Source of the DNA: a virus
Taxonomy: Duplodnaviria > Heunggongvirae > Uroviricota > Caudoviricetes
Virus record (IMG/VR): IMGVR_UViG_2534681990_000030
Direction: 5' to 3' (one strand)
DNA length: 11,019 bases
Below the pieces are notes generated by a model. The model did no database searches. It was not told where the DNA came from and saw only the letters and a list, made by a program, of their open reading frames with translations. Shown here one piece after another: positions 1 to 11,019 of this stretch. Positions within the stretch are counted from its first letter, which is position 1. Each line of letters starts with the position of its first letter. The position numbers and the translations under genes were made by a program.

Positions 1-186
1 TCATTGGTTGCCAGCCCGCGAATCAAGTTTGTTCTGGATCCAAGCTTCAACCTCCTCAAGCGACCATCTAGCTGATCTACCAATTTTAACTGGCTGTGGA
101 AACGTGCCCGTCTTAACCCATGAGTAGATTGCCGTTTTCTTGAAGCCCGTTCTGAGCATGACTTCGCTTAATTTGATAAGGCGCAT
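1..186 (-). CDS. alpA: AlpA-family phage transcriptional regulator (small HTH DNA-binding protein)
   Basis: 61-aa ORF MRLIKLSEVMLRTGFKKTAIYSWVKTGTFPQPVKIGRSARWSLEEVEAWI matches the AlpA pattern (L..EV...G.S...IY.....G.FP.PVKIG.R...W...E...W). ATG at 186-184 with GAGGAG 6 nt upstream; stop at 3-1. It is transcribed out of the window to the left. Confidence 0.75.
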   Translation of the reverse strand: MRLIKLSEVMLRTGFKKTAIYSWVKTGTFPQPVKIGRSARWSLEEVEAWIQNKLDSRAGNQ

Positions 187-235: not shown

Positions 236-300
236 GGTATCCAAAAGCGAGGTATCCATGTTGGTATCCACCAAAACGCTGTTTACCAAAAAGTTACCAC
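236..300. repeat. Direct repeats of GGTATCCA (3 exact copies at 236-243, 251-258, 263-270) plus two degenerate GTTTACCA/GTTACCAC copies, in a divergent intergenic region
   Basis: Read directly from the sequence. Lies between the alpA start (186) and the divergent small gene (438). Could be regulator or recombinase binding sites; function not established. Confidence 0.45.
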
Positions 301-382
301 CGGAACAGGACATTTTGAGCTGTAACTTAACACATAGCATATGGAGTTCACGCATAGACTTCACGCACAACGGCTCTGGCCA

Positions 383-412
383 GTGAAGAATCACCCTGGC
401 TAGCAATATAAT
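383..412 (+). promoter_or_regulatory. Candidate sigma70 promoter for the small gene at 438 (-10 TATAAT at 407-412, weak -35 around 383-389)
   Basis: Perfect TATAAT hexamer 26 nt upstream of the ATG; the -35 match is poor. Sequence-only prediction. Confidence 0.3.
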
Positions 413-437
413 GCCGATCACCATCAGAGGGGAATCC

Positions 438-629
438 ATGACACCACGAGAAATCGAGCTGCTGACCATTGCCAAGCTGGAGCATGGCGGCCACCAGCTC
501 AGCCCGGCAGAACTGCGGGAATTAAGGCGCCAGCTGGCAGAGGGCCCTGTAATAGCCAGGCGGTACCGCGAAATGATGACCAGCCCCGCATATCGCTGGA
601 GCAAACCAGCGCCGCTCCGTGCGCGGTGA
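438..629 (+). CDS. Small hypothetical protein (63 aa), paralog A of a duplicated family
   Basis: ATG at 438 with AGAGGGG 5 nt upstream. I chose 438 over the track's 411 because the paralog at 1438 starts at the equivalent MTPREI and cannot extend upstream (in-frame TGA at 1432-1434). N-terminal 21 aa are 20/21 identical to the 1438 ORF; shared C-terminal REMM..PAY.W.KPAP motif. Confidence 0.6.
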   Translation: MTPREIELLTIAKLEHGGHQLSPAELRELRRQLAEGPVIARRYREMMTSPAYRWSKPAPLRAR

Positions 630-703
630 GCAGCACCTAACCAGCACTAGACAAGCCCTGTGCTGGTGGATGTCCCTCATAATTAGCGGTTTTTAAACGG
701 CGT

Positions 704-824
704 GTTGGTTCACGGCCTCTTTTTGTTGGTTCAAAAATGGGGTGTGTTGGTTCACTTTTTGCGAATAATTCTTTTAAAAACAATACTCTTTACAAATTGA
801 ACCAACTGAACCAACTGAACCAAC
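704..824. repeat. Iteron/operator-like array: GTTGGTTCA x3 in direct orientation with exact 21-bp phasing (704, 725, 746), an AT-rich spacer, then TGAACCAAC x3 in tandem (798-824, inverted orientation)
   Basis: Read directly from the sequence. Sits immediately upstream of the PerC-like gene (ATG 861); a TATAAT hexamer lies at 842-847. Confidence 0.6.
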
Positions 825-860
825 ACCTTTTTGCTTATCTATATAATCTGAGAGGCAGAA

Positions 861-1142
861 ATGATAAGGGACAGGAAAGCTGAAGAGCTGGAGTCAAAAG
901 GGCTATACCGGAGAGCTGCCGCACGATGGATGGAAGTCATGCTGTTATGCACCGAGGACGATGATCGGGAATGGATAAAGCGCCGCCGTGAAACGTGTCT
1001 GGAGAACGTGAAGCGCCCGCCCGTGAAGGTTGAGGAATTTGGCGACCTGCATAAAGCTGTTACCGAAACGCAACACCGCATGGGGATAGCGCAACCGAAC
1101 GGTAACGCCTTCCGGTTAAATGGCGGCAAGAGGCAAAGGTAG
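861..1142 (+). CDS. PerC-family transcriptional regulator (PerC/Pch-like)
   Basis: 93-aa ORF with AEELESKGLYRRAAARWMEVM ... REWIKRRRETC ... TETQHRMGIAQPNGNAFR, matching the conserved PerC/Pch pattern (LE.KGLWRRAA.RW.EV ... WI..RR..C ... TQ.RMGI..P.G.AFR) as I recall it. GAGAGG RBS 4 nt upstream of the ATG. Confidence 0.65.
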   Translation: MIRDRKAEELESKGLYRRAAARWMEVMLLCTEDDDREWIKRRRETCLENVKRPPVKVEEFGDLHKAVTETQHRMGIAQPNGNAFRLNGGKRQR

Positions 1143-1146
1143 ACCA

Positions 1147-1168
1147 CCAGAGGGAAATCATCCTCTGG
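1147..1168 (+). terminator. Hairpin (CCAGAGG - 8 nt loop - CCTCTGG) 5 nt after the PerC-like stop codon; weak intrinsic terminator candidate
   Basis: Perfect 7-bp inverted repeat. The downstream tract (ctggcggtttctggtatttc) is only moderately T-rich, so termination is uncertain. Confidence 0.3.
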
Positions 1169-1437
1169 CTGGCGGTTTCTGGTATTTCGGGACAAGTACG
1201 CGCGCGTAGCACCCAATCGGTGAGGAAATAGCGGCGACCTGAATGGTCAAAATCACAACGCAGCTATCCCCGTAAGCAGCGCTTAACGGAATAGCAGTAA
1301 CCTGAATCCAGTGGGGAGGGGGTAGTCAAATCTCTACAGCCCTGACTATCCGGGACTGCCCGCCCCATCGTTTTTTTATACCCGCGAAAAATGAAATTTA
1401 ATCCGGGCGTGTTTCATCCTTCCAGAGGGTATGACGT

Positions 1438-1623
1438 ATGACACCACGCGAAATAGCCTTATTGACCATCGCCAAACTTGAGCACGGAGGCCACCAGCTT
1501 ACACAGGCAGATCAACGGGAGATAGAACGATCAGTTAATGCCGATATAGCCCGGCGCGACAGGTTCCGCGAAATGATGCGAGCACCTGCCTACCAGTGGA
1601 AGAAGCCAGCGCCGCGCAGGTAG
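1438..1623 (+). CDS. Small hypothetical protein (61 aa), paralog B of a duplicated family
   Basis: ATG at 1438 with AGAGGG 8 nt upstream. Same N-terminus (MTPREIALLTIAKLEHGGHQL) and C-terminal motif as the 438 ORF, with many synonymous nucleotide differences between the copies. Confidence 0.6.
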   Translation: MTPREIALLTIAKLEHGGHQLTQADQREIERSVNADIARRDRFREMMRAPAYQWKKPAPRR

Positions 1624-1743: not shown

Positions 1744-2286
1744 ATGTACCAGCTAAAGATAACCATCCGAGACAGCAAACCACCTATATGGCGGCGTGTG
1801 CTGGTTCCAGAGCAAATCCCCTTTAGTAAACTTCATGCCGTGATCCAGTTAGCTTTTGGCTGGAATGACGAACACCTGTATATGTTCGAGAAAGGGCGTA
1901 AAGGTGATCCAGGTAGCGAGTATCGCGTATGGGGTGAGGATGAAAGCATGGGTAACGCGGCAATCACGCCACTATGGGCGGCGCTCCAGAATGAGGGTGA
2001 CAAGCTGGTTTACACGTATGACTTTGGCGACTGGTGGGATTGCGTCATTGTGCTGGAGAAGCAAACACACGATACGAGTAATCAGCCCATTAGCTGCCTG
2101 CGTGGGAAAGGCACCACCCCGGCGGAAAACTCAGGCGGCTTGCATGGTTACAATGAATTGCTATTACAGGCCAGAGAGTCTGATAATCCTGAGCAGGCCG
2201 AGATCCACAATTTCCTGATGCTGGATATTGAACGCCGGGTTTACGACCTGAGCCGCATCAACGACAGATTGCAGGCTATTAACTGA
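1744..2286 (+). CDS. pRiA4b ORF-3-like family protein (function unknown)
   Basis: 180-aa ORF with the family hallmarks as I recall them: N-terminal LKITIRDSKPPIWRRVLVP....LHAVIQLAFGWNDEHLYMF, central YTYDFGDWWDCVIVLEK, and CLRGKG..PAENSGGLHGY. Preceded by an AT-rich promoter-like region (1624-1743). Confidence 0.7.
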   Translation: MYQLKITIRDSKPPIWRRVLVPEQIPFSKLHAVIQLAFGWNDEHLYMFEKGRKGDPGSEYRVWGEDESMGNAAITPLWAALQNEGDKLVYTYDFGDWWDCVIVLEKQTHDTSNQPISCLRGKGTTPAENSGGLHGYNELLLQARESDNPEQAEIHNFLMLDIERRVYDLSRINDRLQAIN

Positions 2287-2638
2287 CCCGCATGTATTCA
2301 CCTGATATTGCGTTGTCAGCGCCGCCAGTATCGCGCATAACAGCGCACTGACCGGGTAAACCGTAGCGCACGACCGTTGCGTTAGTATCACCGCCGCGCC
2401 GTATCTGGCGCGATTCATACACTGTCACCCGCTCAAGCAGTCCACCAGCAACCATGCTTTCCAGTGTGCGCCGGGTTGATTCGAGCTGGTGACGCTTATC
2501 GAACGACACCATGCCATGAAGCAGGTAGGCCACACCCGACACATCGAACGGCGGCGCACCAATCTCACCAGTCACCCATTCGAGGTTATCCGGTTCAAAG
2601 TAGCTAAGTATCTCTTTTTTGCGACTGGTCATTCTCAT
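2279..2638 (-). CDS. Hypothetical protein (119 aa), convergent with and overlapping the 3' end of the pRiA4b ORF-3-like gene by 8 nt
   Basis: ATG at 2638 with AAGGAA about 10 nt upstream. The N-terminal two-thirds (MTSRKKEILSYFEPDNLEWVTGEIGAPPFDVSGVAYLLHGMV...LESMVAGGLLERV) looks protein-like; the C-terminal third is low-complexity. A 7-bp inverted repeat (TTATTGT 2654-2660 / ACAATAA 2676-2682) lies just upstream of the RBS. Confidence 0.45.
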   Translation of the reverse strand: MRMTSRKKEILSYFEPDNLEWVTGEIGAPPFDVSGVAYLLHGMVSFDKRHQLESTRRTLESMVAGGLLERVTVYESRQIRRGGDTNATVVRYGLPGQCAVMRDTGGADNAISGEYMRVS

Positions 2639-2639
2639 G

Positions 2640-3274
2640 GCTGGCTGATTCCTTATTGTGGGATAGCACTATCATACAATAAGTGGGTTAAAGGGAGAGC
2701 GTTACCGCCTGATATGCTGTATGAATAACAACCAAATTTCAGGTGCGGAAAAAGATATGGGGGTACTTTTGGGGGTATCTATAAAAAATGAACAATAAAA
2801 AAGGCAACAAAAACAAAGCTTATCGCCTATGTGTATTGTTCCTATTATCGCACCATTTATATCAAGCAATTACGATTAAATCCTCTCTTTGTCTGCATCA
2901 TGATTTTTTCCGTGTAACTCCATGTGTAAGTAATTTTCGTCAACATAAATCAACAATAGAGCATCCGTATCTCAGATTGGCTCAGTCTTGTTGATTTTTT
3001 CATCTTGATGAAACAATATTTCTGATATTGATGTTGGACATTTGGGGGGGCAGCTTAGCAGGCCTGTACAGGTTGTTTCATTGATTATTGCTCTATATGC
3101 CTGCCCTTTTAGATAGCCCTTTCCTGTCTACTTCCATCTATGGTGTAATCCCTTGCGAGATTAAGGTTTCTTTCGAGAGATAGTATGGAATTATTCGAAA
3201 ATTATTTGTCAGCGTTACCTAAAAAAAAGCGATTGAGTAAAGTCAAGTTGATTATCCTAAAGAGATTATGGGTT
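2640..3274. other. ~630-bp AT-rich segment with no convincing ORF, located at the truncation point of the primase gene
   Basis: Markedly lower GC than the flanks. Only a 68-aa plus-strand ORF with implausible composition is present. Contains a G7 homopolymer (3044-3050) and an A8 tract (about 3219-3226). Confidence 0.5.
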
Positions 3275-3913
3275 TCAGATGATTTTGATTTTCCTAAACC
3301 TTGGGTCAGTCAGGAGTCTTTTTTCACCATGTGATGTAATAGTCTGTGCTGCTGTGACTGCGCCGGATTTATCCACCAGCGCCAGCAACAGAGATCCATC
3401 GGGCAACACGGGGAATGTAAAATCACCTACCCCTTTCGCAACCAGATAATCAGATTTGCCGTTTACAGCCTTTCTGCGCATGTCATCAAACTGACGGGAA
3501 AACGTATCCCGTCTTTGTTGTTCGTCCTTCTCTGCCCTTTTCAGGCGCTCCTGTTCGCGTCGCTGGCGCTCGGTTTCCAGTTGTTCCCGTTTCTGGCTGG
3601 TGGCTTCTGGTGTTTCCGTTGTCCGGTAATCAATACCCAGAACATCAGCGGCAAGAAGCGCCGCCTCTGTTGTGTCGCAGTTATTTACGCGTTTAATTAA
3701 ATCCAGCCCATCACCAGCGCCGCACTGATTACAGATGAAGCTACCGCGCCCGTTGTCATCGAACCGGAATCGATCTTTGCCCCCACATGCAGGGCAGGGA
3801 GCATGACGGCGCGGAGAGTCAGGGACATTTATGTTCAGGCAGCCCAGCACATGAGGCCAGTTGTTTTCAGACGCACTGATAACCTGACGGATAAGATCAA
3901 TGTTTCGCATCAC
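3275..3913 (-). CDS. DNA primase (P4 alpha / toprim-type), N-terminal zinc-ribbon portion only; apparently truncated before the catalytic Toprim and helicase domains
   Basis: 212-aa ORF containing HAPCPACGGKDRFRFDDNGRGSFICNQCGAGDGLDL (CxxC...CxxC primase zinc ribbon), a charged linker, then the first residues of a Toprim-like region (DYLVAKGVGDFTFPVLPDGSLLLALVDKSG), ending at a TGA at 3277-3275. Full-length homologs are typically 600-800 aa (from memory). Start is GTG 3913 or ATG 3910. Confidence 0.6.
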   Translation of the reverse strand: MMRNIDLIRQVISASENNWPHVLGCLNINVPDSPRRHAPCPACGGKDRFRFDDNGRGSFICNQCGAGDGLDLIKRVNNCDTTEAALLAADVLGIDYRTTETPEATSQKREQLETERQRREQERLKRAEKDEQQRRDTFSRQFDDMRRKAVNGKSDYLVAKGVGDFTFPVLPDGSLLLALVDKSGAVTAAQTITSHGEKRLLTDPRFRKIKII

Positions 3914-4268
3914 CGTACCCCACGTGGTCTATAGCGTTTGCGATATGGCTAACCAGCATCTGCCACTTGGTTATTCCGTAATCAGTCAGCATGCCATCAT
4001 TGTTTAGCCACATATCAAATTCAGCGGTTGTCGCAAGTTTCCACTTATCGCCGTGGACAGTCCTCATTGCTGGGTACATGAATGCGCAAATCAGATCACA
4101 AACATCTGACGGCTTCAGAGATGTAGTAATGGTGCGTCCCTCTGGCGTCTGAATTGCCATTTTCTCTTCACCAGTAGAATGAAGGTTATGAATCCACACA
4201 GCACCAGCAATCTTTGCCACCTGCTCTCCGATTGCGGAGCTAAGCGCCATTTCTGCATTTTCACGCAT
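3897..4268 (-). CDS. Hypothetical protein (123 aa)
   Basis: ATG at 4268 overlaps the upstream gene's stop by 8 nt; its own stop overlaps the primase start. No motif recognised. Confidence 0.5.
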   Translation of the reverse strand: MRENAEMALSSAIGEQVAKIAGAVWIHNLHSTGEEKMAIQTPEGRTITTSLKPSDVCDLICAFMYPAMRTVHGDKWKLATTAEFDMWLNNDGMLTDYGITKWQMLVSHIANAIDHVGYGDAKH

Positions 4269-4602
4269 GAGAACCTCCCGCTACAGTTGCGCCCATGTCA
4301 TTAACCATGCTTTGCCATATCTCACGCCCGACGTCAGTCAATCCGTCCTTAGTGACGCAACGCTCAAGAAGCTCGATCCCCACGGTTTCCCACTGCGGGT
4401 AGAACACTTTCATGGCTGCCAGTGTGTAGCTATCGATCAGGCTGCGAACGCCTTTTACTCCATTAACGATTTCCACACGTACGGCCTCGCCGTCCGCATC
4501 AACCATGAAATAGTCCCCGCCGCTGGTGGAGGTAATGTGGTTATACAGTGCCGACGCATACTTATTTGCCAGCGCATTCAGTCGGAAATTTTTAGTAATC
4601 AT
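4261..4602 (-). CDS. Hypothetical protein (113 aa)
   Basis: ATG at 4602 with GGATGGAG immediately upstream, 10 nt after the stop of the preceding gene. No motif recognised. Confidence 0.5.
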   Translation of the reverse strand: MITKNFRLNALANKYASALYNHITSTSGGDYFMVDADGEAVRVEIVNGVKGVRSLIDSYTLAAMKVFYPQWETVGIELLERCVTKDGLTDVGREIWQSMVNDMGATVAGGSHA

Positions 4603-4612
4603 GGCTCCATCC

Positions 4613-5215
4613 TCAGTGCGTCACTGGTTCCGCTGGCATGCCGTTTTCATTCAGTTCAGCTATAAAGCTGTTGTGAAGTTCAGCAAGCGTTTCACGACCA
4701 AATGGAGTCAGTGCTCCTTGTTCCACATCCATCATGGCTCTGTAGAAAATGATGGCGCGTTCTGTGCCAGACTCGATGCCAAAACGTTCTATCATCGCTC
4801 CCTCAATGTTGTTTGCCATAGCGAGGCGCTCTGCTACTGGATACAGCGGCATGGCGACGATGCCGTTGGAATAAACAGCCACTTCGGAAGGATTGCCAGT
4901 ATCATCAATGATGCTGACAGTGCCGTTTTCCTCTCTCATTTCCAGCATGAATACTGTTGCGATCAGCCATCTCCACATAATGACGTTATGCTGTGATGTG
5001 TAATCGAAATATCCCTGGTTGCCGCCATCGGCAATAGCGAGATGTATTGACATACCTTCATCTGGTTTATCGTCATAATCCCCGGCATCCAGACGATTTA
5101 CGGCATCAATATATGAGACGGCCTCAACGCGTTCTGTCATGCCATCGTTGCTGCGGTACATGATGTTTACGCCGTCAGGCGTTGCTTCTGTATGGAAAGT
5201 TAAGAAATTATTCAT
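4613..5215 (-). CDS. Hypothetical protein (200 aa from ATG 5215; the ORF track extends to 5320)
   Basis: I favour ATG 5215 (MNNFLTFHTE...) because it overlaps the upstream gene's TAA (5208-5210) in the same coupling pattern seen across the operon, with GAGG upstream. The track's longer start would overlap the upstream gene by more than 100 nt. Confidence 0.5.
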   Translation of the reverse strand: MNNFLTFHTEATPDGVNIMYRSNDGMTERVEAVSYIDAVNRLDAGDYDDKPDEGMSIHLAIADGGNQGYFDYTSQHNVIMWRWLIATVFMLEMREENGTVSIIDDTGNPSEVAVYSNGIVAMPLYPVAERLAMANNIEGAMIERFGIESGTERAIIFYRAMMDVEQGALTPFGRETLAELHNSFIAELNENGMPAEPVTH

Positions 5216-5429
5216 GTTTCGCCTCGCCTGAATGATTCTGTAACTCATATTTGCCCAACAATTCGTCCGCTTCCTGAATAGCTTCTGGTACGCCATTGAG
5301 CAGTGACATAACCGCGCCAATCATTAACTTGTCTCTGTTGCTGGGGCTGGCCCCTTCAAGCCAGAACCCTAAAACAGTCTGAACCTGTTCGATGCGACAT
5401 TGCGCTTCAATGAGCTGGATGTTGGTCAT
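5208..5429 (-). CDS. Hypothetical small protein (73 aa)
   Basis: ATGA start/stop overlap with the upstream gene at 5426-5429. Confidence 0.45.
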   Translation of the reverse strand: MTNIQLIEAQCRIEQVQTVLGFWLEGASPSNRDKLMIGAVMSLLNGVPEAIQEADELLGKYELQNHSGEAKHE

Positions 5430-5689
5430 TTCGCACTCTCCACATCGATTAAACCGATATCTATCAGGGAGGTAACTTTTTGTAGCCAGCTATTGATTAC
5501 TGTCGCCTGTTCCCCGCCCACCGAGGGAACAATCTCATTCATCACATGAACCAGACCTGTGCGCGCTCTGGTAAGCCGTTCAGTCGCGCAATCTGCGGGA
5601 GTGAATGTGTCTGGATATGGCTCTTCACGCCCCAGCAATGATTCAATTTCCAGCTCACACGGATGACGATAAATTAAGTTGATATTCAT
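5426..5689 (-). CDS. Hypothetical small protein (87 aa)
   Basis: ATGA start/stop overlap at 5686-5689; GGGGGTG RBS upstream. Confidence 0.45.
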   Translation of the reverse strand: MNINLIYRHPCELEIESLLGREEPYPDTFTPADCATERLTRARTGLVHVMNEIVPSVGGEQATVINSWLQKVTSLIDIGLIDVESAK

Positions 5690-5880
5690 TTTTCACCCCC
5701 AAGAATTACCAGCTCGGCACGGGCATCGTTAACCAAAGATGAGCACGCTTTAATCGCATCCACGACATCAGTAGCGTCCATTTCTTCAGCCGAAAGACTG
5801 ACAGCAACCAGGACAGCCGCTGCTTGCTCGATTAATTGAAGTGCGGACGTAAGGCGAGGGGTATTAATTGAGTTATTCAT
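5686..5880 (-). CDS. Hypothetical small protein (64 aa from ATG 5880; the track ORF extends to 5937)
   Basis: ATG 5880 overlaps the preceding stop (5873-5875) by 8 nt. Start choice is uncertain. Confidence 0.4.
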   Translation of the reverse strand: MNNSINTPRLTSALQLIEQAAAVLVAVSLSAEEMDATDVVDAIKACSSLVNDARAELVILGGEK

Positions 5881-6091
5881 TGGTTGCCCCCGTTTTTCCT
5901 GGCATTTCGCCACCTTCCAGCAGGAAATGAACGTCACGAACGGCGAGATCCAATATCGCGAGTAACGCCTTCAGTCTTTCGTCTCGTGAGGGAGAGTTGC
6001 TCACCAGAATGTCGTTAATCACTTCTGTCAGTGTGATGATCTGGCTTGTGCGTTCGAGGGGATCCATATGCACATCGTAGGTTTTAATCAT
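5873..6091 (-). CDS. Hypothetical small protein (72 aa, [17 protein letters not shown]...); an internal in-frame start within the long 5873..6940 ORF
   Basis: ATG at 6091-6089 with GGAGGTG 4 nt upstream, overlapping the Icd-like stop by 8 nt. Sequence is protein-like, unlike the long ORF's frame immediately upstream. Confidence 0.4.
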   Translation of the reverse strand: MIKTYDVHMDPLERTSQIITLTEVINDILVSNSPSRDERLKALLAILDLAVRDVHFLLEGGEMPGKTGATNE

Positions 6092-6940
6092 GTGCCACCT
6101 CCATGCGGATACGACCAGCAAAAAAGCAGATGTGATCGCGCACCAGAGAACGGCGAGCATCGCGTTCAGACTCGGCAGCAATATGATGAATTTTGGCGGT
6201 AATTGTCGGGCAATCGCGGCGAACTGCGGCGATAATCCAGATAAATTGCGGTTTTTGGGTAGGGGTAGTAGCCAGCATGTGGCAGCCTCCTTGTACTGGG
6301 AGTTCTTCCCACCACCGGAGCTGCGAAACTCGCTGGTGGTGGACTGAACAGAGTTCGCAGTACCGGCGTACAAGGAAACCGGCCAGCCTTTCGGCTGCCC
6401 TGTCCAGCCCACCATAATTTTGCAAGCGACGCGGATTATAACCGCATCACTGAAAAAAGTGTGAGTCTGGCTAACGGCACAAAAAAAGACGCTCGGCGCG
6501 TCATGTGTCGCCTCGTACATTTCCGGGCTGCGAAACCCGGCACCCGTTTTATGAGGTGCCTTATAACCATAAACCGTGTTGCCGCATAACGGCAAGCTCT
6601 TTTTTATGGACTCCGAAAACTCACTATTGGAAGCACCAGATGCACAATACATCGCGCTCATTTCGTTAACGTCGCGCGTGTGGACGAAGGTTTTTGTGGA
6701 GTCACTACGCGAGCAGAGAAAGCCATCTACGACCAGAAATTCTCTGGCGCAGCCGCCGACCTTCTCAACGCTAACACCATCGACCGTAATTTCTGACATA
6801 GTTAAGGCATCCGCTCCCACCACCAGAAAATGATAAACTTTGCTTGTATCTGCTGTATTAATGCCAGACTTTGCTGTCATATTGCTGGATTTTGGCGACA
6901 TACCAGCCAGTGAAAATATCTTCTTCTGGACGGTTAGCAT
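5873..6940 (-). CDS. Long ORF (355 aa) of unresolved gene model: hypothetical protein whose first ~170 codons (6940 to ~6430) look protein-like; the remainder overlaps the Icd-like and 72-aa genes
   Basis: ATG at 6940 with GGAGG 7 nt upstream, overlapping the preceding gene's stop. The frame stays open to 5873, but between ~6425 and 6091 its translation is S/L/P/A-rich and unprotein-like while another frame carries the Icd-like gene with a strong RBS. Possible frameshift or lost stop. Confidence 0.35.
6084..6278 (-). CDS. Icd-like protein (host cell division inhibitor Icd-like family), 64 aa
   Basis: [64 protein letters not shown] resembles Icd-like small proteins of P4-type elements (recollection, not a search). 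ATG at 6278-6276 with AAGGAGG 8 nt upstream. It lies out of frame inside the long ORF 5873..6940. Confidence 0.45.
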   Translation of the reverse strand: MLATTPTQKPQFIWIIAAVRRDCPTITAKIHHIAAESERDARRSLVRDHICFFAGRIRMEVAHD

Positions 6941-7116
6941 TTGTTAACCTCCGCGAACTCCTTCATGAAGCGCGCCAGCGGTTGTACGCATGGCGATTGA
7001 TACCCGTCGCGATAAAACGTCACTCGGTTGTGAGACACGCTTTCGACAGTAACGAGTGCTCCGTGGGCATCCTTGTAGCGTTTTTGAGGTTGTGGTGTTC
7101 CTGTCGGCTTAAACAT
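6934..7116 (-). CDS. Hypothetical small protein (60 aa, [60 protein letters not shown])
   Basis: ATG at 7116-7114 with GGAGGTGG 4 nt upstream; overlaps the AntA-like stop. The track's longer ORF to 7203 would overlap the AntA-like gene by ~95 nt. Confidence 0.45.
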   Translation of the reverse strand: MFKPTGTPQPQKRYKDAHGALVTVESVSHNRVTFYRDGYQSPCVQPLARFMKEFAEVNKC

Positions 7117-7942
7117 GGACCACCTCCAGACGCTTAGCGAGCCAGCGTTGCGACAGGCGGGTGAGTTCTCCTTTGCGCTGCTCATATTCCATGCCCATAT
7201 CAATTAACGTGATATTGGTGCTTTCGAGATATGAGAGGTGCTCAAGTTGTTCTGCGTTCATATGGTCGCGAGGTTCGCCAGAATAGCCATTTATCCGCGC
7301 CCACTGCTTAGCAGTTAGCCCACCAAGAACGATACGAGAAATCATATTGCTCTCGTTTGTGTAGTGGTGTTGCTGCGTCGTTTTCCCCTGCTCGGCACGG
7401 GCCATATTCAGCGCATCGCACATTGGCTTAAAGTTGTTTGCGGCACTGATACGGGCTTTTAGCTGGCGAAGATAGCGGGCGGCGATTTCAGGAACGCTAC
7501 GCTGTAATTCTTCCTCGCACTGGATGAAATAACGGCGGATAGCGCGACCCTGATCATTGCGTTCGATCATTGCCAGTTCTTTCGCCATTCCGACACTTAA
7601 CAGATAGTCTTTGCCGGGTCTGCCAGACTGCTTAATCTTTCTGTAAGCCACGCCATTCGGGCTTTTCCCCAAATTTGGGGAAATAGTTTTATGGACTGAG
7701 TAATCGTGCCCAATGGTGAAGTCATATTCAGAGATGCGATCAGTGATCCATGTAGAGAAGTCTTTTCCCACGCCCAACGCTTTGTGTAACGCTTTTGCGC
7801 TAACAATATTGGTTTCACGCCCACCGATATGACCAGGAATAACCGGGACAATTGCGGCAAATTCATTACCGTTAATTGTGCTCAGAGAGGCGTTCAGATG
7901 AGGGGCGGCCTCAGAAATTAATCTGCTTTTTTCGATGTTCAT
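7109..7942 (-). CDS. Phage antirepressor-like protein (AntA/AntB N-terminal domain family)
   Basis: 277-aa ORF. N-terminal NIVSAKALHKALGVGKDFSTWITDRISEYDFTIGHDY matches the AntA/AntB antirepressor motif (ARDLH..L......F..WI..RI..Y.F..G.DF) as I recall it. GGAGA RBS; ATG at 7942. Confidence 0.6.
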   Translation of the reverse strand: MNIEKSRLISEAAPHLNASLSTINGNEFAAIVPVIPGHIGGRETNIVSAKALHKALGVGKDFSTWITDRISEYDFTIGHDYSVHKTISPNLGKSPNGVAYRKIKQSGRPGKDYLLSVGMAKELAMIERNDQGRAIRRYFIQCEEELQRSVPEIAARYLRQLKARISAANNFKPMCDALNMARAEQGKTTQQHHYTNESNMISRIVLGGLTAKQWARINGYSGEPRDHMNAEQLEHLSYLESTNITLIDMGMEYEQRKGELTRLSQRWLAKRLEVVHV

Positions 7943-7954
7943 TTTCAGTCTCCG

Positions 7955-8386
7955 TTAAGCGGCGTTAAACGCGTCCGGGTAGAGTTTCAGAATGTCGGCA
8001 ATTTCCTGCTGAGAAAGTCCGTTGTGATCATTTATGTTCGCAAGATGGTTAATATGAGTGATCACTTTCAGAACATCACCACGGCAGGAGAAACGGTAGC
8101 GAAGGTGTGTTCCGATACCATCAGGATTCTTTTCGTCGATACGCTCCAGAGTGATTCCAAGCTGGCGTTCTAACTCTGTTGCATAGTTACGACCAGAAGA
8201 CAGACGGCAGTAGCGAAGAATGTCATTTTCTGTCCATCCCTCTATACCAGTACGCAGCATATAGACTCTGGCACGATGCTTTTTCGGTGTGCGCTTTGGT
8301 GCTTGAAGGGATTTTGTAAGGGGCGTAACATCAGATACGCGAATATCTGAATTAGCCGCCTGTAATGGGCGGTTTTTCTTATTCAT
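7955..8386 (-). CDS. Hypothetical protein (143 aa), basic N-terminus; possible DNA-binding protein
   Basis: ATG at 8386 overlaps the alpA stop (TAATG). Lys/Arg-rich N-terminus (PKRTPKKHRAR). No specific family recognised. Confidence 0.5.
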   Translation of the reverse strand: MNKKNRPLQAANSDIRVSDVTPLTKSLQAPKRTPKKHRARVYMLRTGIEGWTENDILRYCRLSSGRNYATELERQLGITLERIDEKNPDGIGTHLRYRFSCRGDVLKVITHINHLANINDHNGLSQQEIADILKLYPDAFNAA

Positions 8387-8583
8387 TACGCTACCTCGCC
8401 ACGCGACTCAGCGATGCGCTGATTAATCCATTCTTCAATTTCACTTTCAATAAACGCAATTGATCGGCTTCCAATCTTTACAGATTGAGGGAATCGCTGT
8501 TCTTTGATGAGCCGATAAATCCACGCTTTGCTGTAACCAGTACGGCGTTGAACCTCAGAAAGACGAATAAATGATTGAGACAT
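8386..8583 (-). CDS. alpA: AlpA-family phage transcriptional regulator
   Basis: 65-aa ORF FIRLSEVQRRTGYSKAWIYRLIKEQRFPQSVKIGSRSIAFIESEIEEWI matches the AlpA pattern. AGGAG RBS 5 nt upstream of ATG 8583. Positioned as first gene of the coupled operon downstream of the integrase. Confidence 0.8.
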   Translation of the reverse strand: MSQSFIRLSEVQRRTGYSKAWIYRLIKEQRFPQSVKIGSRSIAFIESEIEEWINQRIAESRGEVA

Positions 8584-9662: not shown

Positions 9663-9804
9663 ACGCCACCCCGCGCCCCTAATTCTGACGGCTATGCCAG
9701 CCCGTAGGGGTGTACGGGTTTTCGGGGATCAGCCTAGACATAGCCTATTCTTTGTTCGTCTACATAAGTCTACTACCATTGCTTAACACGGTCTATTCAT
9801 ACAG

Positions 9805-11019
9805 TTAAGCTCGTTTCCCAAACGAACCATGAACAACGTTCTCCTCCTTCTCCAGCGCATCCATATAGTCGGCATACCATTGAAGCATCTCCCGCCTTCC
9901 ATCCAGATATTGCGCATGGTTGTATGTGCCACGAATTGAGTTCTTATCAACGTGAGCGAGCTGCGTTTCTATCCACGCGGTGTTATAGCCCTGCTCATGC
10001 AAAATCGTGCTCATAGTGTGCCGGAACCCATGACCAGTTACACGTCCAGCGTAGCCAATGCGCTTAAACACTTGGTTTATGCTGGCCTCACTCATTGTTT
10101 TCCTTGGATCATTGCGCCCGGGAAACATAAGAGGGTAATTGCCTGTTATTTCTCTAATCTTCCCAATAAGCGAAAGAGCCTGATCAGACAATGGCACAAT
10201 ATGAGGCCGCCGCATTTTCATACGTGAAGCGGGTATCTCCCAGATAGCCTTGTTGAAATCAATTTCATCCCATAATGCGCCACGTAGTTCGCCAGTCCGC
10301 AAGCCGGTGATAATCAGTAGACGAGCCGCCATAACAACCAATGCGCTTCCTGAGTAACTGGACAATGCCTTGAAAAAATCAGGTAATTCTTTAGCTGTAA
10401 GGAAAGGGTAATGATTAGATTCATGGCCTTGCATCGCGCTAGTAAGGTCTGGTGCAGGGTTATACTCTGCGCGACCAGTGACTATTGCATAGCGGAAAAC
10501 TTCCCCGCACCGCTGCCTCACTTTTTTGGCTTTTTCTGTAGCACCGCGCCCCTCGATGCGCCGCAGCACATTCAGAAGTTCAAGTGGTTTGATTTCGGCG
10601 ATTGGTTTTTTGCCAATGTAAGGGAACACATCTTTGTTGAAGGCTTCGAGGATGTCTGAAGCATAACCAGCAGACCATTTTTTTAATTTGCTGCTGTGCC
10701 ACTCAAGGGCAATATCTTTGAAGGTGTTGTTTAACTGCGTTTCCCGGGCAATCTTTTCCTCTCGTTTCGCTTCCATCGGATCGATACCACCAGCGATACC
10801 TCTTTTCGCATCTTCACGTTTTGCCCGAGCATCGGCTAGAGTAACCTCAGGATACACACCTAGTGCCAATAGCTTCTCTTTACCAGCTACACGATATTTA
10901 AGTCGCCAGTATTTACCTCCATTAGGTTTTACCAAGAGATACAAACCGCCACCATCGGCCAGCTTGTAAGCCTTCTCTTTTGGCTTGGCTGTGTCTATTT
11001 GACGGGCATTGAGTTTCAC
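9805..11019 (-). CDS. int: Tyrosine recombinase / phage integrase (P4-type); N-terminus at or just beyond the window edge
   Basis: 404-aa ORF with an N-terminal arm-binding-type motif (AKPKEKAYKLADGGGLYLLVKPNGGKYWRLKYR) and C-terminal catalytic signature HGFRHT ... IRGTYNHAQY (HxxR and nucleophile Tyr). The first codon in the window is GTG at the very last base, so the true start may lie upstream. Confidence 0.9.
   Translation of the reverse strand: MKLNARQIDTAKPKEKAYKLADGGGLYLLVKPNGGKYWRLKYRVAGKEKLLALGVYPEVTLADARAKREDAKRGIAGGIDPMEAKREEKIARETQLNNTFKDIALEWHSSKLKKWSAGYASDILEAFNKDVFPYIGKKPIAEIKPLELLNVLRRIEGRGATEKAKKVRQRCGEVFRYAIVTGRAEYNPAPDLTSAMQGHESNHYPFLTAKELPDFFKALSSYSGSALVVMAARLLIITGLRTGELRGALWDEIDFNKAIWEIPASRMKMRRPHIVPLSDQALSLIGKIREITGNYPLMFPGRNDPRKTMSEASINQVFKRIGYAGRVTGHGFRHTMSTILHEQGYNTAWIETQLAHVDKNSIRGTYNHAQYLDGRREMLQWYADYMDALEKEENVVHGSFGKRA

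Follow-up and report, generated by a model that had tools for sequence, protein, structure and literature searches.

The 11,019-nt stretch of viral DNA analyzed here (IMG/VR record IMGVR_UViG_2534681990_000030, Caudoviricetes), which we call the window, corresponds by its sequence to EcCIMP1, a phage-inducible chromosomal island (PICI) carried by Escherichia coli MP1, in rearranged form. On either side of a PerC-family regulator gene, the window carries two small open reading frames (ORFs) on the plus strand: smallA (438..629), encoding 63 amino acids (aa), and smallB (1438..1623), encoding 61 aa. Sequence comparisons show both to be intact, long-diverged protein-coding genes of one family under purifying selection; for the conserved proteins of 61 to 63 residues that make up this family we use the working name SMALL. 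Taking the explanation as a whole, we think it reasonably probable that SMALL is a selected family located at the end of the backbone of phage satellites, that the pair in the window stems from recombination between island lineages, and that the gene itself is a crossover site. What the original prediction, made from the letters of the window, had described as an old duplication is best explained as island mosaicism.

Two genes of one narrow family

The smallA gene was delimited from the ORF list and the family alignment, and smallB corresponds to WP_000188903.1, annotated as a "hypothetical protein." The two proteins align by BLASTP without gaps and are identical at 38 of 61 residues (62%; E 8e-27). 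Both features that had first drawn attention to the pair are real: the 21-residue N-termini differ at a single position, and the C-terminal motif REMM..PAY.W.KPAP is present in both copies. The genes are co-oriented, their start codons lie exactly 1000 nt apart, and their ribosome-binding sites are as alike as had been proposed. There the likeness ends; the coding sequences (CDSs) are just 62% identical in DNA over 183 nt, and the DNA comparison found no similarity upstream past the ribosome-binding site and none downstream.

The many synonymous differences noticed at first sight were also confirmed. Nei-Gojobori counting gave 31.7 differences over 44 synonymous sites (pS 0.72, saturated) and 37.3 differences over 139 nonsynonymous sites (pN 0.27), corresponding to a dN/dS of ~0.14; codons 1 to 21 contribute 11.5 synonymous versus 1.5 nonsynonymous differences. 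Because synonymous sites are saturated and dN/dS is this low, the pair is neither a recent repeat nor an artefact. Assembly error in particular is ruled out by the recurrence of the arrangement in 101/5426 complete E. coli genomes, and the exact smallA and smallB protein sequences are each recorded from at least 1000 contigs. The earlier claims that both copies have been kept under selection and are no artefact of assembly thus hold up. The "old duplication" does not stand as worded: the flanks are unduplicated, and each type occurs alone in other genera.

We place the true start of smallA at ATG 438, because the family alignment begins at MTP and a GAGGGG Shine-Dalgarno sequence precedes this codon; a start at position 411 was rejected on the same grounds. 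By eye, a perfect TATAAT with a weak −35 element is seen at 407-412, 25 nt 5′ of the start. RefSeq annotates smallB alone, and smallA is unannotated in the E. coli records L001, L031, and L040 (loci are cited by such numbers throughout). In the last of these, from E. coli A30, an antisense 45-aa ORF (WP_001384871.1) is annotated over the 5′ end of smallA (4946-5083). Searching the literature with the accession WP_000188903 turned up no papers.

Neither smallA nor smallB matched Pfam, NCBIfam, or PADLOC, and the initial statement that no family could be assigned therefore remains true of the curated families (Pfam, NCBIfam). The one relation is phrog_7271 (PHROGs v4, function unknown), which is matched by smallB over residues 18-58 at E 2.1e-6 and by smallA at E 0.011. 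A SMALL homolog of the Klebsiella pneumoniae/capsid-forming PICI type matches this profile over its full length (E 1.8e-23), and a profile of the window family in turn also recovers the capsid-forming PICI subgroup of phrog_7271 type. Both phrog_7271 and the related phrog_1561 are like SMALL in length (63-position profile) and motifs; the window copies form a divergent MTPREI... subgroup that matches the phrog_7271 profile partially, as peripheral members. Since this PHROG carries no function, membership gives no mechanism.

A word-indexed search returned 115 clusters at 90% identity, of conserved length, from Enterobacterales throughout and all "hypothetical," with genera including Escherichia, Salmonella, Citrobacter, Enterobacter, Klebsiella, Serratia, Yersinia, and Lonsdalea. 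When 1.84 billion representatives were searched exhaustively with a profile, just 40 clusters at 50% identity came up, from which we take the family to be narrow. In a phage collection, tblastn of smallB gave no match, and the K. pneumoniae-type homolog detected one packaged capsid-forming PICI and one 106-kb record. Together, these searches show SMALL as a family restricted to phage satellites of Enterobacterales, namely, classical PICIs with a P4-alpha-type primase and capsid-forming PICIs. One locus, from Cedecea davisae (L014, 7508-7696 / 10001-10183), has a distant SMALL paralog in which only the C-terminal APAYQWKKP motif is kept. The same locus also has a B-type pseudogene (the type of smallB, see below) with an in-frame stop at codon 17 and its Chi site retained.

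Island lineages, iterons, and the backbone-cargo border

For the genomic context of SMALL, we surveyed ~45 loci from genomes, metagenomes, and plasmid and phage records. SMALL is normally single per island and is the last gene of the co-directional backbone, located directly before a variable accessory region that runs up to orf119 and the end of the island. In the canonical islands (L009, L016, and L020), the order is integrase, AlpA, antirepressor, primase, SSB, PerC, C2, SMALL, cargo, and orf119 on the minus strand, where C2 denotes a 181-aa zinc-ribbon protein without a family that is often encoded just 5′ of SMALL. Larger islands (L002 and L036) proceed from primase through 55-aa and 110-aa genes to a protein of 800-1100 aa, C2 in some cases, and SMALL. 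A tape-measure-like gene is followed by C2 and then SMALL in L002, L012, and L022, and in L036 a 1113-aa protein without Pfam matches leads to SMALL with no C2. Two capsid-forming PICI-like elements with SMALL, LR881103 (a 16.5-kb genome from induced particles) and CP018459 (a circular 17-kb record), share the order terS, terL, tape-measure gene, optionally a 69-aa gene, SMALL, ~300 nt, and integrase.

The cargo between SMALL and orf119 may be a PRiA4_ORF3 gene, a SocA/Panacea gene with an adjacent ORF, a CHAD gene, or nothing at all; in L014 it includes a Fic-motif gene (HPFxxGNGR, by eye). The orf119 gene accompanies SMALL in 15 of 23 loci surveyed, even where the SMALL homolog is at 42% identity. 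These gene orders show that SMALL marks the border between satellite backbone and exchangeable cargo. Elsewhere, PerC is a frequent neighbor 1-6 kb 5′ of a single SMALL copy, or is absent. In the survey, PerC was thus not generally flanked by these small genes, flanking on both sides being a property of the EcCIMP1 lineage only.

Two further features were seen upstream of SMALL. Repeat clusters containing TGCGCA, e.g., AATTGCGCAGTGCGCA and TTCGCAGTTAATGCGCAGTAA (the latter twice), lie 5′ of C2/SMALL in three unrelated islands (L009 8714-9139, L002 7210-7336, and L036 6840-6963) and are absent from the window; they may constitute a regulatory or packaging site. In addition, EcCIMP1-type islands encode homologs of the P22-type ejection proteins gp14/gp7/gp20/gp16 (DUF2824, DNA ejection protein, lytic transglycosylase; L031 13481-18649, L039 1-2968, and L032 1-3482). 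In other islands their position is taken by proteins of 765-1135 aa, annotated as tape measures in L030 and L041 and with a weak TMP_2 match in L002. Judging from these genes, the satellites seem to encode DNA-delivery proteins for themselves.

The two types of SMALL gene are found apart from each other. The A type, that of smallA, stands alone in islands of K. aerogenes (AlpA on the minus strand, a 106-aa gene, smallA, iterons, island end), in Leclercia, and in E. coli A30 (alpA_1 on the minus strand, smallA, iterons, a different PerC allele, dinD, chromosome); A-only islands are L040, L032-35, L005-8, and L025. Relatives of smallA are 78-92% identical in Leclercia and K. aerogenes, with 92% reached in K. 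aerogenes. The B type is alone in Kluyvera intermedia (L009, 100% identical), Enterobacter, Lonsdalea, Atlantibacter, and E. coli CUVET21-1780, the last with the order ribbon-helix-helix (RHH) gene on the minus strand, iterons, PerC, smallB, PRiA4, and orf119; B-only islands are L039, L009-L020, and L029. The divergence between smallA and smallB is as large as that between different satellite lineages, and synonymous sites are saturated alike.

An origin-like iteron cluster (703..826) lies between smallA and PerC. In this cluster, an AT-rich spacer separates three copies of TGTTGGTTCA (21-nt spacing) from three following inverted copies of TGAACCAAC (9-nt spacing). The cluster recurs beside SMALL or 5′ of PerC in many loci. 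EcCIMP1 has it twice, in inverted orientation (L031 10738-10848 and 19278-19388), one copy right after the primase gene and one between smallA and PerC, an arrangement reminiscent of the ori/crr pair of P4. In B-only E. coli islands, homology to the window is lost exactly at the left edge of the cluster (702-724), and Leclercia retains smallA together with the cluster (window 379-831). Further on, blastn breakpoints and binned identity delimit a conserved leader 5′ of smallB (1314..1437, plus strand) that is common to the canonical islands. Upstream of this leader, 164 nt of unrelated sequence (1150-1313) stand in place of the C2 gene of other islands. A C2 remnant in the 296-nt gap at 1143-1437 was considered and rejected, as tblastn found no match there; no Rfam family matched the gap either.

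We propose that an A lineage with the order alpA_1(−)-smallA-iterons met a B lineage with the order iterons-PerC-(C2)-smallB-PRiA4-orf119, and that recombination at the shared quasi-palindromic iteron cluster would have joined the A end to the B segment, most simply in tandemly integrated islands. The iteron cluster at 703-826 is thus the probable crossover point between the smallA module and the PerC-smallB module, and we infer that the two copies are alleles of two island lineages brought together by modular recombination. Such a juxtaposition fits better than a duplication, given the unduplicated flanks, the occurrence of each type alone, and the lineage-level divergence. The rival view, an ancient tandem duplication in place in the ancestor of EcCIMP1 with both copies kept through specialization, would account for the co-orientation, the 1000-nt start-to-start spacing, and the similar ribosome-binding sites. 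Moreover, such events can happen in this region, because a genuine tandem duplication is present in Pantoea coffeiphila (L024 9589-12188), where a 1251-nt unit of SMALL, an opposite-strand 142-aa RHH-like gene, and an iteron cluster is repeated in identical copies. We nevertheless consider it an unlikely origin of the pair in the window, where nothing outside the CDSs is repeated. Our test for tandem duplication found no flank similarity and placed A and B each closer to genes of other genera; each is found alone, at 92-100% identity, in other genera or E. coli islands. Flanks re-assort freely in the flank-type table, and A/B synonymous divergence is saturated, as between lineages.

Exchange is also visible within SMALL. 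Relative to the Enterobacter islands L016 and L020, the window is ~72% identical over 1438-1530, 63-69% over 1531-1565, 90-93% over 1566-1623, and 95-96% downstream through the cargo. Similarly, SMALL of Shimwellia (L017) is 99% like that of L020 over its first 93 nt, then turns to the window type, and is followed by unrelated downstream DNA. By clustering the two flanks and the two halves of SMALL, each on its own, we obtained a module table, in which cargo flank D1 was found with two backbones. In the same table, the 5′-half type a1 (at least 88% nucleotide identity) was combined with 10 3′ halves, 10 upstream contexts, and 7 downstream contexts. Comparison of these modules shows SMALL to be a crossover site, with type switches in the 3′ third of the gene and cargo joined to varied 5′ halves and backbones.

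Both small genes contain an exact Chi octamer (5′-GCTGGTGG-3′) on the minus strand, at 491..498 in smallA and 1491..1498 in smallB, spanning the same codons, G18 (third position), H19, Q20, and L21 (first position). Nine Chi sites occur in the 11-kb window (491, 662, 1491, 2442, 3373, 3596, 4522, 6332, and 10787), whereas shuffles average 0.29 and never exceed 3. Related islands carry 0.74 Chi per kb with no overall strand bias, a density about three times the E. coli genome average. The co-orientation of Chi with island direction seen in the window was rejected as a general feature, as 142 kb of related islands have 52 top-strand versus 53 bottom-strand sites. The packaged genome of the capsid-forming PICI L041 has six Chi sites on one strand and none on the other.

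Within SMALL, GGC CAC CAG C is used by all 14 distinct CDSs encoding G-H-Q (14/14), and the codons for H16, Q26, and Q53 and the third position of L21 vary freely. In Serratia, the internal Chi is lost and a Chi of the same orientation precedes the start by 22 nt; in Leclercia, L015, and L026, an extra Chi of this orientation at −21/−22 accompanies the internal one. The orf119 gene of the window has a Chi at 2442-2449 (minus strand). Most of its non-E. coli relatives have a top-strand Chi inside orf119, which in the window is mutated to GCTGGTGA. As this top-strand site opposes the bottom-strand Chi of SMALL, the two face the cargo. Homology to other islands often begins at ~2432-2460, beside the orf119 Chi sites.

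By the polarity of Chi, RecBCD entering from outside would begin recombination just inside the sites. Sequence types switch 40-75 nt from Chi, on the predicted side, and this agreement with Chi polarity is suggestive. The inward-facing sites might stop RecBCD from degrading incoming satellite DNA, so that recombination would begin in the short conserved arms; Chi would be kept at synonymous positions or, once lost, re-created ~22 nt upstream. It is conceivable, and we raise it tentatively, that the synonymous-position Chi of SMALL and the opposing Chi of orf119 focus RecBCD-dependent exchange of cargo. That SMALL and orf119 form a Chi-armed protein-coding bracket around the accessory region, in which cassettes are swapped often and of which the small-gene pair is a scar, strikes us as doubtful.

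Several observations weigh against the overall account. Many of the surveyed loci are related, and the counts of Chi conservation come from related sequences as well. Other codons are invariant too (P3 as CCA in 18/18 and F43 as TTC in 8/8), and because the islands are Chi-dense (0.74/kb) without strand bias, the Chi in SMALL may be incidental. Breakpoints at a gene border can also result simply from a conserved CDS with diverging flanks, and an ancient duplication followed by differential loss would be an alternative source of the pair. In addition, adjacency to iterons is limited to lineages with TGGTTCA iterons and was not found in L009, L002, and L036. Finally, promoter and terminator scans upstream of smallA and smallB called nothing, including no consensus sigma-70 promoter.

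Fold and possible roles of SMALL

In the family alignment, M1, T2, P3, I6, A12, E15, M47, Y52, W54, K56, and R61 are invariant, and K13, L14, H16, G18, Q20, L21, R27, E28, R31, M46, P50, and P57 are also invariant or nearly so. Distant members have another N-terminus and retain A(K/R)L.GH.L, the arginine-rich end of helix 2, and the terminal P.Y.WKKPxPRR. AlphaFold2 predicts smallB, at a mean predicted local distance difference test score (pLDDT) of 92, as two helices (residues 3-16 and 23-47) with a loop between them; the tail is modelled at pLDDT 70-79. The proteins are basic (isoelectric point [pI] ~10.8, net charge +5), with +4 or +5 held by the tail. A structure search with the model gave no significant match among solved or predicted structures, and a profile search of PDB sequences returned a chance match to the GCN4 coiled coil at E 2.1 alone.

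In this moderately confident model, the aromatic C-terminal segment (P-A-Y-Q-W; P50, Y52, W54, and P57) would pack on the C-terminal half of helix 2, leaving a polar patch (E15, H16, G18, H19, Q20, R27, E28, and R31) and a basic end (K55, K56, R60, and R61). The conserved patch of loop and helix 2 (EHxGHQL, RE..R) and the positive charge of the terminal KKPxPRR would then serve partner binding. Because this packing would expose both the conserved patch and the basic end, we favor an adaptor, as a possibility of modest weight: a compact basic helix-loop-helix protein that binds nucleic acid or a satellite or host protein and acts late, as an accessory to the induced operon. A role as a classical transcription factor is unlikely. 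The original prediction of a small DNA- or RNA-binding regulator stands insofar as the pI of 10.8 and the basic tail are compatible with it. The searches gave it no helix-turn-helix (HTH), RHH, nucleic-acid-binding, or fold match.

Other roles can be weighed against the genomic contexts. SMALL could assist replication or set copy number at the iteron clusters, in concert with the P4-alpha-type primase-helicase; the ori/crr/Cnr logic of P4 provides an analogue. Indeed, iterons follow smallA within 75 nt in the window, MP1, L040, K. aerogenes, and Leclercia and lie within ~400 nt of SMALL in L013, L014, and L024; in EcCIMP1 the same cluster directly follows the primase gene, and the pI of 10.8 would suit such a role. 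Yet the islands L009 (iteron AGTAGGGAT) and L002 and L036 (iteron AGTGGTTCCA) have their iterons only after the primase gene and none near SMALL. Neither a DNA-binding fold nor a family was matched, and the C-terminal tail is strongly conserved whereas iteron sequences are lineage specific, all of which makes a replication factor unlikely. A chaperone or adaptor for the upstream tape-measure-like or DNA-ejection proteins, serving virion assembly or DNA delivery in the manner of tail assembly chaperones, we regard as quite improbable. In its favor, SMALL directly follows the 816-aa protein with the weak TMP_2 match (L002) and the 1113-aa protein (L036). Tape measures annotated by the depositors lie directly upstream in L030 (1135 aa) and, with a 69-aa gene between, in L041 (765 aa), and EcCIMP1-type islands have P22-like ejection-protein genes upstream. 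A Pfam scan of 24 SMALL relatives at E values up to 10 also gave weak matches to Phage_TAC_6 (PF09550) in 5/24, the best at E 0.018 and 15.9 bits over residues 20-48. However, none of the relatives reached the gathering score of 23.4 bits, smallA and smallB gave no match, L009 and L020 carry SMALL without tape-measure or ejection genes, and the genes of known tail chaperones precede that of the tape measure.

Finally, the ORFs might not encode functional proteins at all, their conservation reflecting a cis-acting DNA or RNA element such as Chi, a leader or arrest peptide, or the target of an antisense RNA. Over the first 90 nt, nucleotide identity stays at 88% or more in very different contexts (type a1), a Chi is embedded there, and the W/P-rich C-terminal tail superficially recalls arrest peptides. 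Against this, synonymous change is in strong excess over nonsynonymous change, length and reading frame are conserved in >100 clusters, the fold is predicted with confidence, and in distant members the protein motifs persist although the nucleotides differ. In addition, complementarity of at least 8 nt to the C4-like and IsrK-like RNAs of the island was not found, nor was there an Rfam match in the region. We hold a purely cis-acting role to be very improbable.

The island and known systems

The window derives from a chromosome of E. coli O111 type. Its positions 1-2857 correspond, in inverted orientation, to the distal end of EcCIMP1 at 99.8% identity, and 3309-8577 and 9829-11019 match the integrase-to-primase part of that island at 98%. 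At the level of genes, the integrase, AlpA, antirepressor, primase N-terminus, alpA_1, PerC, PRiA4, and orf119 of EcCIMP1 are 97-100% identical to those of the window; smallA, smallB, PerC, PRiA4, and alpA_1 are 100% identical in E. coli MP1. The window differs from EcCIMP1 in that the module at 1-2857 is inverted, the primase gene is cut at ~212 codons, and the ejection-protein block is absent. At the 3307/3309 junction, the truncated primase gene is fused to the 5′ part of an otherwise missing HNH endonuclease gene (3185-3307). Since its primase is truncated, this copy of the island is probably defective and unable to replicate. We defined PICIs by a co-directional integrase/AlpA/primase module and a size of ~10-20 kb, without a full set of phage structural or lysis genes. 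The window has this module (integrase, 9805-11019; AlpA, 8386-8583; primase fragment, 3275-3913) and, with 98-100% identity to EcCIMP1, belongs to the Gram-negative PICIs of EcCI type.

For EcCIMP1, the intact relative, experiments have demonstrated both excision and transfer by phage Kapi1 (ISME J 2025, PMC11773190). The same study found that EcCIMP1_025 (PerC) silences LEE1 expression, assigned an accessory excisionase role to alpA_1, and makes no mention of smallA or smallB (PMC11773190). The PerC-family gene of the window (861..1142, plus strand; Pfam PerC, E 3.7e-30; 100% in MP1) is identical to EcCIMP1_025, and the published cloning primers for the latter match window 861-880 and 1125-1142. 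Five nucleotides past the PerC stop codon, a 7-bp hairpin (CCAGAGG-GAAATCAT-CCTCTGG, 1147-1168) followed by a moderately T-rich stretch may be a terminator between PerC and smallB; it was not among the calls of the terminator scan.

The left end of the window is formed by an alpA_1-type AlpA/Xis-like gene (1..186, minus strand; Pfam Phage_AlpA, E 1.9e-13) that is divergent from smallA. In the intergenic region between the two, three GGTATCC(A) direct repeats (236..269) can be read from the sequence. They are a candidate operator or Xis-binding array, because the segment holding them (232-278) is 86-91% conserved in Leclercia loci and remnants. Downstream of smallB, a cargo gene of the PRiA4_ORF3 family (1744..2286, plus strand; Pfam, E 1.1e-42) lies between SMALL and orf119 (2279..2638, minus strand), the conserved 119-aa gene that closes the cargo region. 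The orf119 protein has no family match, and its sequence resembles a winged-helix protein.

Three Rfam families matched the window above their gathering scores, all on the minus strand: C4 antisense RNA (6332-6419, 81 bits), IsrK Hfq-binding RNA (6482-6559, 69 bits), and int-alpA RNA (9677-9744, 47 bits). These matches indicate a putative P4/P1-like RNA immunity module in the island. Control of the small genes by the C4-like or IsrK-like RNA was rejected, as smallA, smallB, and PerC lack complementarity of at least 8 nt to them. No window gene matched a PADLOC defence model.

With this analysis, an ORF pair that was unannotated or "hypothetical" is placed in a defined, widespread family and linked to an experimentally tractable island, EcCIMP1 with its helper phage Kapi1. 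Virulence regulators and anti-phage systems have major carriers in phage satellites. The Chi bracket, if true, would offer a concrete mechanism for rapid turnover of satellite cargo; if it is not, annotation is still improved, smallA being missing from RefSeq.

Among known systems, Rpp is like SMALL in that both are small PICI-encoded proteins downstream of the replication module. Rpp redirects packaging and is a coiled-coil dimer of 144-153 residues with a winged helix-turn-helix (wHTH) (Mol Cell 2019, PMC6739421). An Rpp-like role was rejected on size and fold, SMALL having 61-63 residues, two helices, no wHTH, and no beta hairpin; the two have no sequence or fold similarity. Closer in size is Rop/Rom of ColE1, a 63-aa helical hairpin that binds RNA and modulates copy number, with which SMALL shares the predicted two-helix hairpin and a gene near a replication origin. 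As a candidate, a Rop-like RNA binder was set aside because the model did not superpose on the Rop hairpin or four-helix bundle. The third likeness concerns the position of the gene. P4-like satellites have cargo and defence hotspots flanked by conserved genes, and the islands examined here, among which we found no sid, delta, or psu genes, similarly hold a variable region between two conserved genes near the island end. The flanks in P4 are psu and int; here they are SMALL and orf119.

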